IMG/VR virus record: IMGVR_UViG_2667528155_000014
DNA from: a virus
Taxonomy: Duplodnaviria; Heunggongvirae; Uroviricota; Caudoviricetes
DNA: 12,204 nt
Direction: 5' to 3' (one strand)
The notes under the pieces are model-generated. The model searched no databases and was not told the DNA's origin. It was given only the letters and a program-made list of their open reading frames with translations. The position numbers and the translations under genes are program-made. Each line of letters begins with the position of its first letter. The first letter of the stretch is position 1. Positions 3,403-12,204 of the stretch are shown here, piece by piece.

Positions 3403-3837
3403 ATGATTACTATCGTACTGAATAAAATTAACCAGATCTTATCCCATGCTGACTTTGGTAAGTTCCTGTTAAGACTTGCTGTTGGTGGGCTGATGTTATT
3501 TCATGGTTTGCATAAGCTCTTTGCAGGAGTTGAAGGTATTAGCGGCATGCTTATAGCTAACGGCTTACCTGGATTTTTCGCATACGGAGCAATTGTGGGA
3601 GAGGTTTTGGCTCCAGGCCTGATTATTCTTGGGGTTCTTACTCGCCCCGCAGCACTGTTGCTGGCTTTTACAATGATTGTGGCCTGGCTTCTGGTGGGGG
3701 TAGAGGAAACATGGATGCTCGAAAGTACTGGCGCGTGGGGAATAGAAAGCCTGGTGTATTTTTTTGTTGGCTCTCTGTCAGTTGCATTACTGGGGGCAGG
3801 GCGTTATTCGGTCGCCAGGGGAACTGTATGGAATTAG
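3403..3837 (+). CDS. DoxX-family integral membrane protein (moron/cargo gene)
   Basis: 144 aa, four hydrophobic segments, LMLFHGLHKL-type N-terminal helix typical of DoxX proteins; GGAG 9 nt upstream of ATG; AT-rich upstream region. Confidence 0.6.
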   Translation: MITIVLNKINQILSHADFGKFLLRLAVGGLMLFHGLHKLFAGVEGISGMLIANGLPGFFAYGAIVGEVLAPGLIILGVLTRPAALLLAFTMIVAWLLVGVEETWMLESTGAWGIESLVYFFVGSLSVALLGAGRYSVARGTVWN

Positions 3838-4228: not shown

Positions 4229-4305
4229 GGCCCTTTAGCTCAGTTGGTCAGAGCGTGCGACTCATAATCGCCAGGTCGCTGGTTCAAGTCCAGCAAGGGC
4301 CACCA
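4229..4305 (+). tRNA. tRNA-Ile2 (anticodon CAU, lysidine type; by anticodon alone could also be tRNA-Met)
   Basis: Full cloverleaf: acceptor GGCCCTT/AAGGGCC, D-arm GCTC...GAGC, anticodon loop CTCATAA, T-arm GCTGG-TTCAAGT-CCAGC, encoded CCA. T-arm and anticodon arm match my recollection of E. coli ileX; a prophage copy would be ileZ-like. Confidence 0.85.
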
Positions 4306-5681: not shown

Positions 5682-6254
5682 ATGAACCGTATAACGATTA
5701 TCGCAATAATTTCGTTCCTGGTTGTGGTTGTTATGCTGGTATTCAGCCGGGCCGACCTTGCTGTATCAGAAAGTGATAACCGGATCCTTCGCAATGATAA
5801 CGCGCTACAGGGGCAGGTTATCGCCACTCAGGTTTTCAACTTTAACCGGTTTAATCAGGTTGCTGATAATACCAGCCGCCTTAACTCCCTGATTGATGCC
5901 GGTTCCGAAAAAACAGTTATTGAATACCGGGAGATACTCCGTCGTGAAAAAACCTGTGATTTGCCTGTTCCTGCTGATATCGCTGACGGGCTGCTCGACC
6001 ACGCGTACCGTTTACGTGCCAGCGCAATGTACCCCGATCCCCGGAACGCTGATGCAGCCGGTGGTGACACCATTACCGCCAGCTCTCTGACATACTGCCA
6101 GGCTGTTCTCTGGATCGGGCCGCTGCTGGCTACTATTGAGAAGGCGAATAACCAACTGACTGGTATCAGTAAAATTGAGTTGGAACGCAAGCAACTAGGA
6201 AAAATTATGGAGTTAAAGGACAGAGACGTTAAGGTTGTAAATCATTTTAAATGA
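5682..6254 (+). CDS. Rz: Rz-like inner-membrane spanin (i-spanin)
   Basis: MNRITIIAIISFLVVVVMLVF N-terminal signal-anchor like lambda Rz (MSRVTAIISALVICIIV), then a long charged/helical periplasmic domain; contains an embedded +1-frame lipoprotein ORF. Confidence 0.8.
   Translation: MNRITIIAIISFLVVVVMLVFSRADLAVSESDNRILRNDNALQGQVIATQVFNFNRFNQVADNTSRLNSLIDAGSEKTVIEYREILRREKTCDLPVPADIADGLLDHAYRLRASAMYPDPRNADAAGGDTITASSLTYCQAVLWIGPLLATIEKANNQLTGISKIELERKQLGKIMELKDRDVKVVNHFK
5944..6090 (+). CDS. Rz1: Rz1-like outer-membrane lipoprotein spanin (o-spanin), embedded in Rz in the +1 frame; GTG start (alternative in-frame ATG at 5893)
   Basis: VKKPVICLFLLISLTGC lipobox (LTGC) followed by a proline-rich mature region (TPIPGTLMQPVVTPLPPAL); GGGAGA 9 nt upstream of GTG 5944; entirely inside Rz. 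Confidence 0.75.
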   Translation: MKKPVICLFLLISLTGCSTTRTVYVPAQCTPIPGTLMQPVVTPLPPAL

Positions 6255-6373
6255 ATATGAATGTGATAAATGTAAGTTGGGCTGAATAGTTTTCAGCTCT
6301 ACATCATGTAATGATATGTATCTCGATAATTAAATTATTTTTTATAGATATATTTGTAGTAAGTGTGGATTTG

Positions 6374-6405
6374 AAGGGTATCTTAATAAAAATACCCTTT
6401 TCTGT
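6374..6405 (+). terminator. possible terminator hairpin downstream of Rz
   Basis: 8-bp stem AAGGGTAT / ATACCCTT with 10-nt AT-rich loop, followed by TTTCTGT; weak U-tract. Confidence 0.3.
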
Positions 6406-6433
6406 CGAATGTTTACAAACGATAATTTTTATC

Positions 6434-7342
6434 CTATTGAAGGAAGTTCCGAGCCCGAAGAAAGTTTTGAGCAATCAGGTCGCCAATTGGATTTAAAACA
6501 TATGAATTAAAGTCATTTATGGTCGATACGCCAAATGCATCTAGAGTTAACTTTAAAGCAGGAAATGTTTCAAAGAACATCTCATCGCTTTCAAAGCTGG
6601 TGATTCCAGTCCTTTTTCCAAGTAGGTCTTGATAGTTTGTTATGTATTGCTTGTCTGTGAAGATAACGCCTTTTAAGCTGAGGAGATCAATGTTTATTTT
6701 TCTCAAAGACTCTATTTTATCTAAGAATTTAATGTAATCAATATCATAGCGAGCATAGTATTCTTTGTGGGCTGAATGGTTTTGCTCTACGGTAAAGCCA
6801 ATTAATCCAAAGTGAGTTTCATTTCTTTCAGCAAGAGCTGTCATGTTAATACCGTTTCGTATCTTATTTATGTTTCTGAGGTAATATATTAGAGAGAGAA
6901 ATTTAATGTCGTTTGTTGTTAATTTAGATGTCACCTCAAGAGCGTGATCTATAACTATACTATCCTCTTCTTCTTCAGTTTGAATTTTAGAAACGATTAG
7001 CTCTTTAAGTAACTCCGATTTTTCATCAAATCCTTTTCGAGCCACCTGAGTTACAGCTTGGTTCATCGAATATTGAATGTCAGGGTCGGATAATTTCTCT
7101 TTTAATTTATGATCAAGATCACTAGAAAGTTTAGCTGCAATCTGATTACCAAATTCTATCGCTCGTTGGTTTACAAGTTTATATGCTTCCTCTTTTAAAG
7201 AAGCCATTTGTGCTTGAACTACTAATTCACAGATAGTAACTACTTCAGTAGTAGTATTACCAATGATAGCATCACCGGTTACTTGGATTGCGGTAGAACC
7301 ATCTCCGACATGTTGACCCGACTTATGATCGAAAAGACTCAT
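6434..7342 (-). CDS. hypothetical 302-aa protein, AT-rich cargo gene of unknown function (candidate phage-exclusion/defence component)
   Basis: Long clean ORF antisense to the late operon; AAGGA 6 nt upstream of ATG 7342; ATGA overlap with the upstream small ORF; no family recognised by inspection. Confidence 0.7.
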   Translation of the reverse strand: MSLFDHKSGQHVGDGSTAIQVTGDAIIGNTTTEVVTICELVVQAQMASLKEEAYKLVNQRAIEFGNQIAAKLSSDLDHKLKEKLSDPDIQYSMNQAVTQVARKGFDEKSELLKELIVSKIQTEEEEDSIVIDHALEVTSKLTTNDIKFLSLIYYLRNINKIRNGINMTALAERNETHFGLIGFTVEQNHSAHKEYYARYDIDYIKFLDKIESLRKINIDLLSLKGVIFTDKQYITNYQDLLGKRTGITSFESDEMFFETFPALKLTLDAFGVSTINDFNSYVLNPIGDLIAQNFLRARNFLQ

Positions 7343-7584
7343 TTTTTGTCCTTTTCATTAATGGTTAAATTACCACTGACTTGTATTCCTGAAGAGTTAT
7401 TACCAATCACTTGGCTTATAGAGGATGACTTCTTCTTGTCACTTATTAAGTTGGCTACAGCAGTTAGAAAAGCCCCTAAGCTGACTAAGAAAGCCAGTAG
7501 AGAAGCCAGTCCATGATGCTGGTATGCCTGATACCCGAATCCGCATGTTGCAACGAACGAAATTAGACAGATTAACTTTCTCAC
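7339..7584 (-). CDS. small two-TM membrane protein (81 aa, GTG start), coupled to the 302-aa ORF
   Basis: Two hydrophobic segments followed by a Ser/Lys-rich tail with repeated xQVxGN motif; stop overlaps the downstream ATG; GTG start with weak GAGAG upstream, so start and reality are less certain. Confidence 0.45.
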   Translation of the reverse strand: MRKLICLISFVATCGFGYQAYQHHGLASLLAFLVSLGAFLTAVANLISDKKKSSSISQVIGNNSSGIQVSGNLTINEKDKK

Positions 7585-7596
7585 GCGTCATATCTC

Positions 7597-7624
7597 TCTA
7601 TAGGTTAAATGGCACTAAAAGCAA
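7597..7624 (-). promoter_or_regulatory. candidate sigma70 promoter for the minus-strand cassette (TTGCTT-16 bp-TATAGA on the minus strand)
   Basis: Hexamers read on the minus strand; predicted start leaves only a few nt before the GTG, so the transcript may be near-leaderless. Confidence 0.3.
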
Positions 7625-7630
7625 CGCAGG

Positions 7631-7654
7631 ATGTGCTTTGCTCTGAGCACATCA
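7631..7654. promoter_or_regulatory. perfect inverted repeat GATGTGCT-N8-AGCACATC immediately upstream of the candidate -35 (possible operator/activator site)
   Basis: 8-bp perfect palindromic arms with 8-bp spacer at about -42 to -65 relative to the minus-strand promoter. Confidence 0.3.
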
Positions 7655-7933
7655 TTGATTCATCTTACTAATATCTATTAATTAAAAGATAAAACTAGGG
7701 GGTTTATGGTAAAACAGGACTGGACAGTGCTGCAACACCAGTCTCTCGCCGACTATGCCAAAACGGGTATATCACCAAAAGAGTGGTGCTAAGCAGGGAG
7801 ACGGATTAACACATCTGCACGTTTAGGTGAAGAGTGGACTGACCTGATACAGGTATATGATCCTGTTCTAAGCATTAATTAGTATAATCGATATTCATTC
7901 TCATTTGATGGGGCCTGTTATGCGATCCAACCT

Positions 7934-8010
7934 GTTACGGGGCGGCGACCGTGTGGATTCTCTCTATTTATGAATATTGTCCACTATTTGCCATTTCCGT
8001 TTTTCTCTCC
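7934..8010. other. lambda-type cos region: cosN-like 12-mer GGGCGGCGACCG at 7940-7951 with flanking cosQ-like and cosB(R3)-like sequence
   Basis: GTTACGGGGCGGCGACC is identical to the lambda cohesive-end junction as I recall it (lambda GGGCGGCGACCT); downstream CTATTTATGAA and TTTCCGTTTTTCT align with lambda left-end sequence at the same spacing. Confidence 0.6.
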
Positions 8011-8140
8011 GAGTACAACATGATTTCTATCCAACAAACAGGGCAACGCCGATGCCAGCACGTGCTAAACGTCCATGCCGACAAGGGACGTGCGGCAATC
8101 ATAGTCGCATTGCACGCGTATAAATAACAAGGAGGGGGGA

Positions 8141-8374
8141 ATGCGCCTCACTGTATTAGATGATGATCCCGGCAGGAAGATTGATATCAGAGTAGAGCGG
8201 TACACTGTCTATCTTGATGGTGTTGATGTTAAGCGCGCGCTCACTGCTGATGATGAGAAAGGTGAAGTAATCGCTGTTGCATGTGATGAATATGGCCACG
8301 CGACCATAGAGAACGGCGAAGTGAAGAGGCAGATGCTTTACGGCTTAGTGAGGATTGAACGGTGTCCGCACTGA
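8141..8374 (+). CDS. hypothetical small protein (77 aa) at the head of the packaging module
   Basis: Strong Shine-Dalgarno AAGGAGGGGGG before the ATG; acidic protein; not recognised. Confidence 0.6.
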   Translation: MRLTVLDDDPGRKIDIRVERYTVYLDGVDVKRALTADDEKGEVIAVACDEYGHATIENGEVKRQMLYGLVRIERCPH

Positions 8375-8392
8375 TTTACAGGTAATGGTGGT

Positions 8393-8746
8393 ATGAACAA
8401 AGAACCGCGCATCTATGACAGCAGATGGGGTAAAGCCCGCCAGGCATTCCTGCGCGAACATCCTTTATGCATTATGTGTCAGGCACTGGGAAGGATTGAG
8501 CTGGCGACTGTGGTCGATCATATCACGCCACACAGGTTGAAAGATGCTCTCATAACAGGAAATCCCGCAGATATCTCCCGGGCGCAAAAGCTGTTCTGGG
8601 ACAGAGGAAACTGGCAAGGGTTATGTAAACCCCATCACGACTCAACCAAACAGCGTATGGAAAAGAGCGGGAGAATGACTGGCTGTGATGCTGATGGGAT
8701 CCCGCTTGACCCCGATTCACACTGGAACAGGGGGAGGGGCGGGTAA
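8393..8746 (+). CDS. phage HNH endonuclease (terminase-associated)
   Basis: HNH motif: CIMCQ ... DHITPH ... N ... CKPHHD; GGTGG before ATG; located directly upstream of terS/terL as in HK97-like packaging modules. Confidence 0.85.
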   Translation: MNKEPRIYDSRWGKARQAFLREHPLCIMCQALGRIELATVVDHITPHRLKDALITGNPADISRAQKLFWDRGNWQGLCKPHHDSTKQRMEKSGRMTGCDADGIPLDPDSHWNRGRGG

Positions 8747-8960
8747 AAACTTAAATACCTTTGCAGTAAATGACCCCCGCTTCTCCTTTCTGTGTACAAC
8801 CGCGAAATGAAAAGTTTTTTTTTGGCTTGTTTTTTGGTTAAAAAACAACCTCGAATTACTTCAGTGTATTGATATATAAGAAAATGATGAAAACAGCAAA
8901 GCTACTGTATTAAAATACATATGTGATTTAATGCAGTAGTTTTATTGGGAGGTGCCCGGC

Positions 8961-9425
8961 ATGGCAGGGAGACGTCCGAAACCGTCCCATCTGAAAGCGG
9001 TAACCGGCAACCCAAGCAAGCGAAAACTCAATGACAAAGAGCCGTTGCCCTCACGCGAAATACCGTCGCCGCCCCCGCACCTGACCGACTGGGGAAAGGT
9101 TGCCTGGGGAAAACTGACCGTACTGCTGGATGGGATGGGAGTGATGACGGTAGCTGACGGACTGGCACTGGAGCGCCTCTGTGATATCTACGCCGATATC
9201 CTTCAGTTACGTGACACTGTCGCAGTGGAAGGCAGAACCTATACGGTACAGACAGATGGTGGATTTCTGATAAAACCGCATCCTGCTGTCGCCATGCTGG
9301 CAGACGCTGACCGCCGTTTTAAAAGTTATCTGGTTGAATTCGGTCTGACCCCGGCCGCCAGAACGAAGGTAAAAGTTGATGGTGGAGAAAAAGACGAAGA
9401 TCCGTTCAACCAGTTCTTCGGTTGA
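8961..9425 (+). CDS. terminase small subunit, P27 family
   Basis: N-terminus MAGRRPKPSHLKAVTGNPSKRKLN and HLTDWGKVAW are typical of P27-family TerS; GGGAGG 8 nt upstream of ATG 8961 (the ORF track begins at an in-frame GTG at 8952). Confidence 0.85.
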   Translation: MAGRRPKPSHLKAVTGNPSKRKLNDKEPLPSREIPSPPPHLTDWGKVAWGKLTVLLDGMGVMTVADGLALERLCDIYADILQLRDTVAVEGRTYTVQTDGGFLIKPHPAVAMLADADRRFKSYLVEFGLTPAARTKVKVDGGEKDEDPFNQFFG

Positions 9426-11118
9426 TCCAGCCACGCAGTATGCAATGGATGTGGGTACCGGTAAGAAAATTGCCGGACCAGATATTCGTAATGCCTGTAA
9501 ACGTCATTTGCGCGATCTTGAATTTGGGCATAAGCGCGGCTTGTCATGGGATACAGAAGCAGCACTACGCGCGATTGATTTTTTTGCGAAGGTACTGAAG
9601 CTTAACGGTGGGGAGTTTGAAGGAGAACCCTTCATTCTGTTGCCCTGGCAGTGCTTTATTGTGGGATCCATTTTTGGATGGAAACGGCGGAACGGGGCGC
9701 GCCGCTTTCGTACCGCTTATGTGGAATCAGGCAAGGGATCAGGTAAATCCCCTCTGGCGGCAGGGGTTGGCCTGTACTGCATGACTGCGGATAAGGAGCC
9801 CAGGGCCGAGGTGTATGCTGCGGCGACGAAAAAAGACCAGGCTATGGTGTTGTTTCGTGATGCGGTGGCGATGGTGGATCAATCACCGGCGCTGGCACAA
9901 CGTATCAGCAAATCAGGAGGGGCGGGCAAAGAGTGGAATCTGGCATTTTTGCAGACGGGATCATTTTTCCGCCCGATTAGTTCTGATGACGGGCAGTCAG
10001 GCCCACGACCACATTGTGCCTTGATTGATGAAATCCATGAGCACAAAAGCAACATTGTGGTTGAAATGATGCGGGCTGGTACAAAAGGCAGGCGTCAGGC
10101 GCTGATTTTCATGATAACTAACAGTGGTCATGACAAAACCAGCGTCTGCTATGACTATCACCGGTACGGACAAAAAGTCGCAGCCGGACAACTGGATAAT
10201 GATGCATTTTTCTCTTTCATTTGTTCCCTTGATGAAAGAGATGATCCCTTCCAGGATGAATCCTGCTGGCCAAAAGCGAACCCTTCCATGGGGCATACAT
10301 TTGAGGACAGTTATTTACGGGAACAGGTTGATGATGCCCGCGGTATTCCGTCCAAAGAGAGCATTGTACGACGCCTTAATTTCTGTCAGTGGGTTGATGC
10401 TGAAAATCCATGGATTAGCAGTGATGCCTGGATGGCATGCGAAAAAAAATTCGATCCTGAAGAGTTCCGGGGGCAGATTTGTTACGGAGGACTGGATCTT
10501 TCCGGCAAAAGAGATCTCACTTCTCTTTCTCTGTATTTCCCTGGAAGCAATGCGTTGCTTACTGAGTTCTGGACGCCGCGCGATACACTTTTCGATCGCG
10601 CAAGGGTGGATCGTGTTCCTTATGACGTCTGGCTGAAGAAGGGGTATGTACACGCGCCGCCAGGTGCTGCAATTGATTATGGCTTTGTGGCAAAACGTCT
10701 GGCAACACTTGCTGCAATGTTCGACATCCGTAAGGTGGCGTTCGACAGTTACCACATTGATTACCTTTTGCCGGAACTGGATGATGAAGGTGTAAACATC
10801 CCACTGATTCCGCACGGCCAGGGATTCGGCAAGTCCGCCAAATCCGGACTGTGGATGCCGCATTCCATTGAGTTGTTTGAACAACTCATCATGGATAAAA
10901 AAATAAACATCGTACTCAACCCCTGCCTTCGCTGGTGTGCGGCCAATGCCGTTATAGAGGAGGACAAAAGCGGAAACCGTGTATTCAGCAAGCGTCGCAG
11001 CAATGGGCGTATTGATGGCGTGGTGTCCGGTGCCATGGCAATTGGTGTTGCAGGATCCTGTGAAGATGACGGCGACGGCGATATCAGTGATTTCTTTAAT
11101 GACCCCATATTTATGTGA
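9379..11118 (+). CDS. terminase large subunit (Terminase_1/HK97-like)
   Basis: ~580 aa; conserved N-terminal TQYAMDVGTGKKIAG...CKRHLRDLE, Walker A-like SGKGSGKS, and a nuclease domain with acidic residues; start overlaps the terS end (ATG 9379; alternative ATG 9445 would remove conserved residues). Confidence 0.9.
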   Translation: MVEKKTKIRSTSSSVDPATQYAMDVGTGKKIAGPDIRNACKRHLRDLEFGHKRGLSWDTEAALRAIDFFAKVLKLNGGEFEGEPFILLPWQCFIVGSIFGWKRRNGARRFRTAYVESGKGSGKSPLAAGVGLYCMTADKEPRAEVYAAATKKDQAMVLFRDAVAMVDQSPALAQRISKSGGAGKEWNLAFLQTGSFFRPISSDDGQSGPRPHCALIDEIHEHKSNIVVEMMRAGTKGRRQALIFMITNSGHDKTSVCYDYHRYGQKVAAGQLDNDAFFSFICSLDERDDPFQDESCWPKANPSMGHTFEDSYLREQVDDARGIPSKESIVRRLNFCQWVDAENPWISSDAWMACEKKFDPEEFRGQICYGGLDLSGKRDLTSLSLYFPGSNALLTEFWTPRDTLFDRARVDRVPYDVWLKKGYVHAPPGAAIDYGFVAKRLATLAAMFDIRKVAFDSYHIDYLLPELDDEGVNIPLIPHGQGFGKSAKSGLWMPHSIELFEQLIMDKKINIVLNPCLRWCAANAVIEEDKSGNRVFSKRRSNGRIDGVVSGAMAIGVAGSCEDDGDGDISDFFNDPIFM

Positions 11119-11123
11119 AGCCT

Positions 11124-12204
<1,081 letters not shown>

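Follow-up and report, generated by a model that had tools for sequence, protein, structure and literature searches.

The lambda-like cos sequence at 7890-8006 is very probably a non-functional scar left behind by an earlier exchange of packaging modules, and the terminase now encoded next to it would cut at a cos of its own, of the HK97/P27 type, predicted at 8730-8819 (coordinates are those of the window, i.e., the whole stretch of 12,204 nt that was analysed). A previous sequence-only reading of this DNA had left two options, either that the terminase uses a lambda-like cosN or that the cos is a relic of recombination. The first is contradicted by the relatives of this module and by the site at 8730-8819, and it is the second that finds support. 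The homologies, the positions of the junctions, the absence of the lambda-like segment from relatives and its faster divergence are all directly visible in the comparisons described below.

The window contains the late region of a lambdoid prophage that does not appear in the E. coli complete-genome set (coverage <=5%), although, judging from the names of protein clusters, E. coli draft genomes do carry copies. In order, it contains the genes of DUF1367 and YbcO together with a Q-like gene, then a tRNA, and next the holin, lysozyme and Rz genes, followed by two low-GC genes on the minus strand (302 and 81 aa), the lambda-like cos and then the packaging and head genes. A tRNA-Met (CAT anticodon, 4229-4305) and the gene of a DoxX-family membrane protein (3403-3837) separate the Q-like gene from that of the holin. 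At the other end, the portal gene (11115-11972) is interrupted after 285 codons by an IS3-family element (11972-12204, with a transposase fragment at 11976-12182 on the minus strand), and because this element cuts the portal gene the prophage copy in the window is defective. A sister copy (L007, GCA_910665095.1) has an intact portal of 441 aa and also encodes the terminase, an S78 protease, the capsid, connectors and tail genes.

The ends of the lambda genome (NC_001416) were joined into a cos junction for pairwise alignment, and window 7890-8006 gave an ungapped alignment to lambda 48453-48502 plus 1-67, with 87 of the 117 positions identical (74%, pairwise E 3e-20). A sensitive BLAST search of 7700-8400 against 50,697 phage records (2.3 Gb) retrieved lambda-family cos regions for the same stretch, with E-values from 1e-9 to 4e-17 among the 40 records listed out of 66, the best matches among those listed being mEp237 and HK225 at 76-79%. 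When the same region was compared to the phage records by megablast there was no match, so that the cos homology was recovered by the sensitive mode only. The phages mEp237 and HK225 also provide the nearest functional cos sites, with 54 of 67 positions identical to the right of the nick and an R3 almost identical to the R3-like box of the window. The lambda-like match is real and beyond chance, and at 117 bp, up to its end at 8006, it is far longer than the GC-rich 12-mer, a match limited to which would have counted against the sequence-only reading.

The individual parts of a lambda-family cos are recognizable within this segment and lie at the same spacing as in lambda. A cosQ-like heptamer, GGGGCCT (7910-7916, plus strand), occupies positions -30 to -24 from cosN, exactly as GGGTCCT does in lambda (48473-48479). 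It is followed by GTTACG (7934-7939) and, directly after it, by the cosN-like 12-mer GGGCGGCGACCG (7940-7951, plus strand), identical to lambda at 11 of 12 positions. The stretch GTTACGGGGCGGCGACC at 7934-7950, previously taken for the lambda cosN junction with base 12 as the sole difference, was found to be just that. Since G at base 12 is also found in mEp237, HK225 and N15, all of them lambda-family phages, it is no defect in itself. To the right, a spacer 11-mer (CTATTTATGAA, 7964-7974) is identical to lambda 25-35 with its spacing unchanged, and a putative R3-like box for the binding of TerS (Nu1) (CATTTCCGTTTTTCTCTC, 7992-8009, plus strand) occupies the position of lambda R3 (53-70), in agreement with the earlier statement that the sequence following cosN aligns with the left end of lambda at the same spacing. 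By descent, 7890-8006 is a lambda-family cos like those of lambda, N15 and the phi80-like mEp237 and HK225.

Not everything that a functional lambda-type cos comprises is present, however. The 12 bp of cosN with their conserved flanks, similar to GGGCGGCGACCT, are there (GTTACG and the 12-mer), but instead of the conserved 7-bp cosQ expected ~30 bp upstream the window has the altered heptamer given above. Of cosB, which would be either R3-I1-R2-R1 or a simpler version with R3 and an inverted rR2 inside terS, only the R3-like box could be identified. A scan for R boxes in 7600-8500 on both strands, allowing up to 2 mismatches, found no box besides this one (R2 and R1 are absent), and a search for repeats around it found none, I1 being absent too. 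Directly downstream, the place of Nu1/A-type terminase genes is taken by a 77-aa ORF, which is followed by HNH, P27 TerS and TerL genes. That R2 and R1 are missing was at first weighed as proof of inactivity. This argument was later downgraded, because in N15-type phages a single R3 can suffice as cosB (PMC4669245), so that the lack of the other two does not prove inactivity toward a matching lambda-family terminase. A second cosN-like 11-mer with one mismatch appeared at 9064-9074, on the minus strand and inside terS; this is within chance expectation and was discarded as a second cos.

Signs of decay were found along the segment and its sister copies. The cosQ element is highly conserved (Feiss et al., PMC4669245), and its core GGGTCCTTT was unchanged across 75 unique Nu1-linked cos sites; it is altered in the window (GGGGCCTGT) and altered in another way in the Citrobacter copies (GAGTCCT). 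The cosN itself is mutated in several sister copies, namely GGGCGGCTACC in C. freundii, GGGTGGCGACC in L187 and GGGAGACGACC in L188, the changes of the last two being in the left half, which is normally conserved. Natural variation does occur in the right half of cosN (PMC4669245), and both the G at base 12 of the window and the T at base 8 of C. freundii were accordingly downgraded as defects. The copies of E. coli and C. braakii still have an intact cosN core with GTTACG, something that counts against considering the segment a relic. Mutations in cosN alter both cohesive ends together and function need not be lost. The divergence between the E. coli and Citrobacter copies amounts to 11-12% in this segment (13-14 substitutions in 117 bp, thus small counts), compared to 4.5-5.8% in the adjacent intact genes. 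This is about twice the divergence of the intact genes of the block and similar to what the intergenic and pseudogene DNA nearby shows (mostly 9-17%).

The genes found downstream are, as had been noted before, not Nu1/A-like. The 77-aa ORF (8141-8374, plus strand, phrog_24619) is the first gene of a block shared with a Salmonella prophage. It is followed by an HNH endonuclease (8393-8746, plus strand, phrog_2323 at 2.7e-48) that is a homolog of HK97 gp74 (70% amino acid identity, E 1e-55), by a small terminase of the P27 family (8952-9425, plus strand, Terminase_4, PF05119 at 6.9e-23, phrog_83) with no detectable similarity to HK97 gp1, and by a large terminase with ATPase and nuclease domains (9376-11118, plus strand, PF03354 and PF20441). 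The identity of this TerL is 27% to HK97 gp2 and 73-76% to the proteins of Pantoea phage AH07 (73%) and of Klebsiella and Serratia phages.

A way to establish whether the lambda-like site and this set of genes go together is to look at the relatives of the latter. The Salmonella prophage (L160/L161) matches window 8102-11967 at 97% identity, i.e., from the 77-aa ORF through the HNH, TerS and TerL genes to the portal, and upstream of the equivalent of 8102 it has an unrelated flank with no cosN-like sequence. In 26 loci from other genera with relatives of the TerL (47-75% amino acid identity), among them Superficieibacter, Pectobacterium, Providencia, Proteus, Gilliamella, Symbiopectobacterium, Arsenophonus and some beta-proteobacteria, the terminase is never preceded by a lambda cosN, and Pantoea phage AH07 is likewise without one. 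Conservation was judged from diverged copies (the Salmonella and Citrobacter members of the cluster, and a degenerate DNA pattern in IMG/VR), as exact-protein look-ups gave identical copies only and were uninformative in this respect. Seen from the other side, of 120 lambda-like cos sites sampled in IMG/VR, 113 precede a Nu1 homolog. In the remaining seven, either cosB is of the phage-21 type or the sequence available downstream is too short for a judgement, and none of the 120 is followed by an HNH gene or a P27 TerS. Judged by these comparisons, the lambda-like site does not belong to the current packaging module.

The predicted functional cos is located at 8730-8819 (plus strand), between the HNH gene and terS. 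It consists of a G-box (8730-8743), a predicted 10-nt 3' cohesive end (CCCCGCTTCT, 8775-8784) with the cut at 8784|8785, and a non-coding 24-mer (ACAACCGCGAAATGAAAAGTTTTT, 8796-8819) that would bind TerS. This region is homologous to cos ends that have been defined experimentally or by reads, i.e., the right end of HK97, the annotated cos-site of phiP27, and the ends of SfI and of AH07. Homology to the final 55 bp of HK97 (GGGGGGGGATCAAATCTTCAAAACCTTTGCCCCAAATGACCGCCGCCAAA|) is plain to see over window 8730-8784 (GGGGGAGGGGCGGGTAAAAACTTAAATACCTTTGCAGTAAATGACCCCCGCTTCT|). In phiP27 a 10-nt 'cos-site' (CGCCCGCCCC) is annotated between HNH and terS, within the same frame as in the window: G-box, GAC plus 10 nt, 11 nt, and then ACACCCGCGAAAT. 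The ends of the AH07 genome were determined from reads by PAUSE and PhageTerm (PMC8567787), and its left end, 11 nt upstream of the 24-mer, corresponds to window 8785. The SfI ends align to the same point, so that the four references (HK97, AH07, phiP27 and SfI) all put the cut at 8784|8785. In PY54 the genome starts ~60 bp upstream of its terS. The order of the elements is also that of HK97, phiP27, SfI, PY54 and AH07, with the site between HNH and terS, just upstream of terS and terL, and the enzymes that such a site would need, a gp74-like HNH and a TerL with ATPase and nuclease domains, are encoded on either side. At the level of sequence, the predicted working site has everything by which an HK97/P27-class, HNH-assisted cos is recognized. 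In HK97 the cleavage of cos is stimulated by the gp74 HNH and leaves a 10-nt 3' overhang (PMC11331095); ends of this kind at the predicted site would be expected from HK97 and from the phiP27 annotation.

The 24-mer is perfectly conserved in the window, the E. coli sister copies, AH07 and 12 loci of other genera (Superficieibacter, Pectobacterium, Providencia and Proteus) whose TerL is only ~70% identical at the amino acid level. It is nearly identical, with 3-5 mismatches, in five more loci (Gilliamella, Symbiopectobacterium and Arsenophonus), and always appears between HNH and terS (the loci include L003 and L011-L027). In HK97, TerS binds at +15 to +29 from the cut (PMC11331095), and the 24-mer of the window spans +12 to +35 from the predicted one. 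It is a likely recognition site of the P27-family small terminases.

The phage phiP27 is the namesake of the P27 TerS family. With phiP27, SfI and AH07 the window shares the whole layout of the site, that is, the G-box, GAC with a 10-nt cohesive end, 11 nt, and ACA(A/C)CCGCGAAAT, and it differs from them in the predicted cohesive end itself and in ~115 bp of extra AT-rich DNA before terS, present in the E. coli and Salmonella versions. This extra DNA (8826-8938) separates the 24-mer from the ribosome-binding site of terS; in most relatives terS comes within ~15 bp after the 24-mer, and in one Symbiopectobacterium locus (L023) and one Arsenophonus locus (L036) another insertion takes its place. 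With HK97 (gp74 HNH, gp1, gp2) the window shares the order HNH-cos-terS-terL, the related HNH, the TerL family, and the left half of the cos, from the G-box through AAATGACC to the cut, which is homologous to the HK97 right end. Unlike in HK97, the TerS belongs to the P27 family, and the DNA to the right of the cut, 24-mer included, resembles phiP27, SfI and AH07. The predicted cut is thus itself a mosaic boundary, with the HNH gene and the DNA to its left being HK97-like, and the DNA to its right and the TerS being like those of phiP27, SfI and AH07. That the right side is P27-like rather than HK97-like fits a TerS without similarity to gp1.

The DNA surrounding the lambda-like segment contains other scars. 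Upstream of it, at 7706-7792 (plus strand), there is a remnant of the 5' end of a different terS gene (phrog_370 type) with a stop at codon 29 and DNA homology extending to ~7820. It has 78% nucleotide identity to the start of gene 455-1195 of Klebsiella phage RothC, which precedes the RothC TerL and matches phrog_370 at 2e-84. In the Citrobacter copies of this remnant the stop is missing and the frame continues for ~57 codons. Downstream, 8052-8099 (plus strand) holds the first 16 codons (MPARAKRPCRQGTCGN) of an HNH gene of the PF01844/HNH_5 type, with a 2-bp deletion. These align to the start of a 120-aa HNH gene that is intact in Citrobacter prophages, and it is because the Citrobacter gene begins at the equivalent of 8052 that 8052-8099 can be identified as the start of an HNH_5 gene.

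These Citrobacter prophages (L169-L177) are 93% identical to window 5741-8099, a stretch running from the last part of Rz across the 302-aa and 81-aa genes and through the lambda-like cos. After 8099 they continue with a different module, made up of the 120-aa HNH, a 144-aa P27 TerS, a 573-aa TerL, a portal and an S49 protease, with a PY54-like cos of its own adjoining terS. The homology to Citrobacter stops at 8099 and that to Salmonella starts at 8102, which places a sharp recombination junction to the present module at ~8100, inside the HNH_5 remnant; an older one, in which the rest of the lambda-type cosB would have been removed, maps between 8007 and 8051. The mosaic junction that the sequence-only reading had placed at 7921-8010 was therefore right in spirit and misplaced.

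In IMG/VR, five more contigs have the cosN-R3 segment fused to an HNH_5-type gene (92-95% amino acid identity), with varied upstream flanks and another type of TerL. The same search yielded no un-recombined ancestor of this cos variant linked to Nu1, all five of the new matches being HNH_5-fused. Altogether, the unit formed by cosN, R3 and HNH_5 (L185-L189 and L169-L177) appears with at least four different upstream flanks, which diverge around cosQ or cosN, and with at least two types of TerL. Such variety points to a clustering of recombination breakpoints within the putative relic or close to it. The persistence of the unit in several diverged lineages could reflect linkage alone or some selected role.

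Within 400 bp (7706-8099) the window thus has what is left of three earlier packaging modules, one after the other, and the current module comes next. One replacement after another would have produced this arrangement, with the 5' edge of the older module left behind each time. From it and from the comparisons above we infer the order of the events, the loss of function, and also the overhang and the exact position of the cut. In the ancestor, cosQ-cosN-cosB would have closed a right arm of the lambda type, with terminase genes of the Nu1/A type after it. A recombination just past R3 would then have replaced Nu1/A and the rest of cosB by a module with an HNH_5-type HNH, a P27 TerS and a TerL, a state that the Citrobacter prophages still show. 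By a second recombination at ~8100, inside the HNH_5 gene, the present module (77-aa ORF, HNH, cos, TerS, TerL and portal) would have entered. The present terminase would ignore the lambda-like site and recognize its own cos between HNH and terS: TerS would bind the conserved 24-mer (8796-8819), and TerL and the gp74-like HNH would cut at ~8784|8785, producing the 10-nt 3' overhang.

That the HNH/P27-type terminase itself cleaves the lambda-like cosN at 7940 seems extremely improbable, in spite of several features that might invite this conclusion. The cosN core and the flanking GTTACG are intact in the window, the site precedes the packaging genes and is correctly oriented, and a similar segment precedes another HNH-type module in Citrobacter and in the IMG/VR contigs. 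Against this, the nearly identical Salmonella module and the 26 relatives do without the lambda-like site, a conserved HK97/P27-type cos that matches the ends of HK97, phiP27, SfI and AH07 is found at the canonical position between HNH and terS, and the Citrobacter module that accompanies the segment has its own PY54-like cos next to terS. Moreover, HK97-type enzymes make 10-nt 3' overhangs (PMC11331095), compared to the 12-nt 5' ends of the lambda family (PMC4669245).

The segment could also act in trans, if it were nicked by a lambda-family phage, either co-resident or superinfecting, whose R3 specificity matches (mEp237/HK225/phi80-like); packaging would then start or end there, mobilizing the prophage or adjacent DNA. 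The intact cosN of the window and an R3-like box close to those of mEp237 and HK225 speak for such a role, as does the fact that termination needs only cosQ and cosN and that the N15-type cosB is a single R3 (PMC4669245). We consider it very unlikely, given that the cosQ core is changed at a position invariant in the 75 sites with a functional context, that cosN is mutated in sister copies even in its conserved left half, that the substitution rate resembles that of the neighbouring pseudogene and intergenic DNA, and that I1, R2 and R1 are all missing. In addition, a lone cos in a prophage gives no packageable unit without a second one about one genome length away. There is similarly little probability that the segment has been kept for some role other than that of a cos, either as a patch of homology for recombination of the lysis and late arm with lambda-family phages or as a 5' leader of the downstream late genes. 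The four or more upstream flanks of the cosN-R3-HNH_5 copies are what recombination within such a patch would give; nevertheless, the segment shows no evidence of constraint, with a divergence as high as that of the flanking non-coding DNA, the Salmonella relative manages without it, and a scan of 7500-9000 for promoters and terminators gave nothing above the shuffled expectation and no such sites in 7585-8140. It is, in short, quite unlikely that the segment is not entirely dead, whether by being nicked or used for termination by co-resident lambda-family terminases or by serving as a homology patch for exchange of the lysis arm between unrelated head modules. If the nicking did occur, it would link an HK97/P27-type prophage and the neighbouring chromosomal DNA to lambda-type transduction.

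The scar of an earlier packaging-module exchange, which we consider the most adequate description of 7890-8006, can be set against the known systems that it resembles. The likeness to the lambda-family cos extends to 117 bp without gaps, the position of cosQ, the cosN with its flank, the spacer 11-mer, R3 and identical spacing. The differences are the lack of Nu1/A, I1, R2 and R1, the altered cosQ core, the mutated cosN of sister copies, and the absence of the segment from phages with the same terminase. A lambda-family cos in an element without its own Nu1/A is also seen in the PICIs of Gram-negative bacteria (for example EcCICFT073), and we have considered whether this could be such a satellite, a small element devoid of structural genes that depends on the terminase of a helper. 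This was rejected because the sister copy L007 has the full set of structural genes: unlike a PICI, the prophage is of full size and encodes a terminase, portal, protease, capsid and tail of its own, its lambda-like cos is degenerate, and no satellite-specific packaging-redirection genes are evident in its annotated gene content.

Relic packaging signals at the boundaries of modules are an expected product of lambdoid mosaicism, and in this sense the finding is an ordinary one, here cleanly resolved. It has a practical side for annotation, as genome ends or a packaging strategy predicted from the conspicuous lambda cosN would be wrong for this family of prophages. The locus also illustrates how the swapping of modules at the boundary between lysis and packaging leaves layered scars. 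The two minus-strand genes at 6434-7584, with a GC content of ~33%, form a cassette that encodes a 302-aa protein of the LPO_1073/Vpar_1526 family and the 81-aa protein; it is located between Rz and the cos relic, the same position as the bor-type morons of lambda, and copies of at least 90% identity are found in prophages of E. coli, Citrobacter and Enterobacter.
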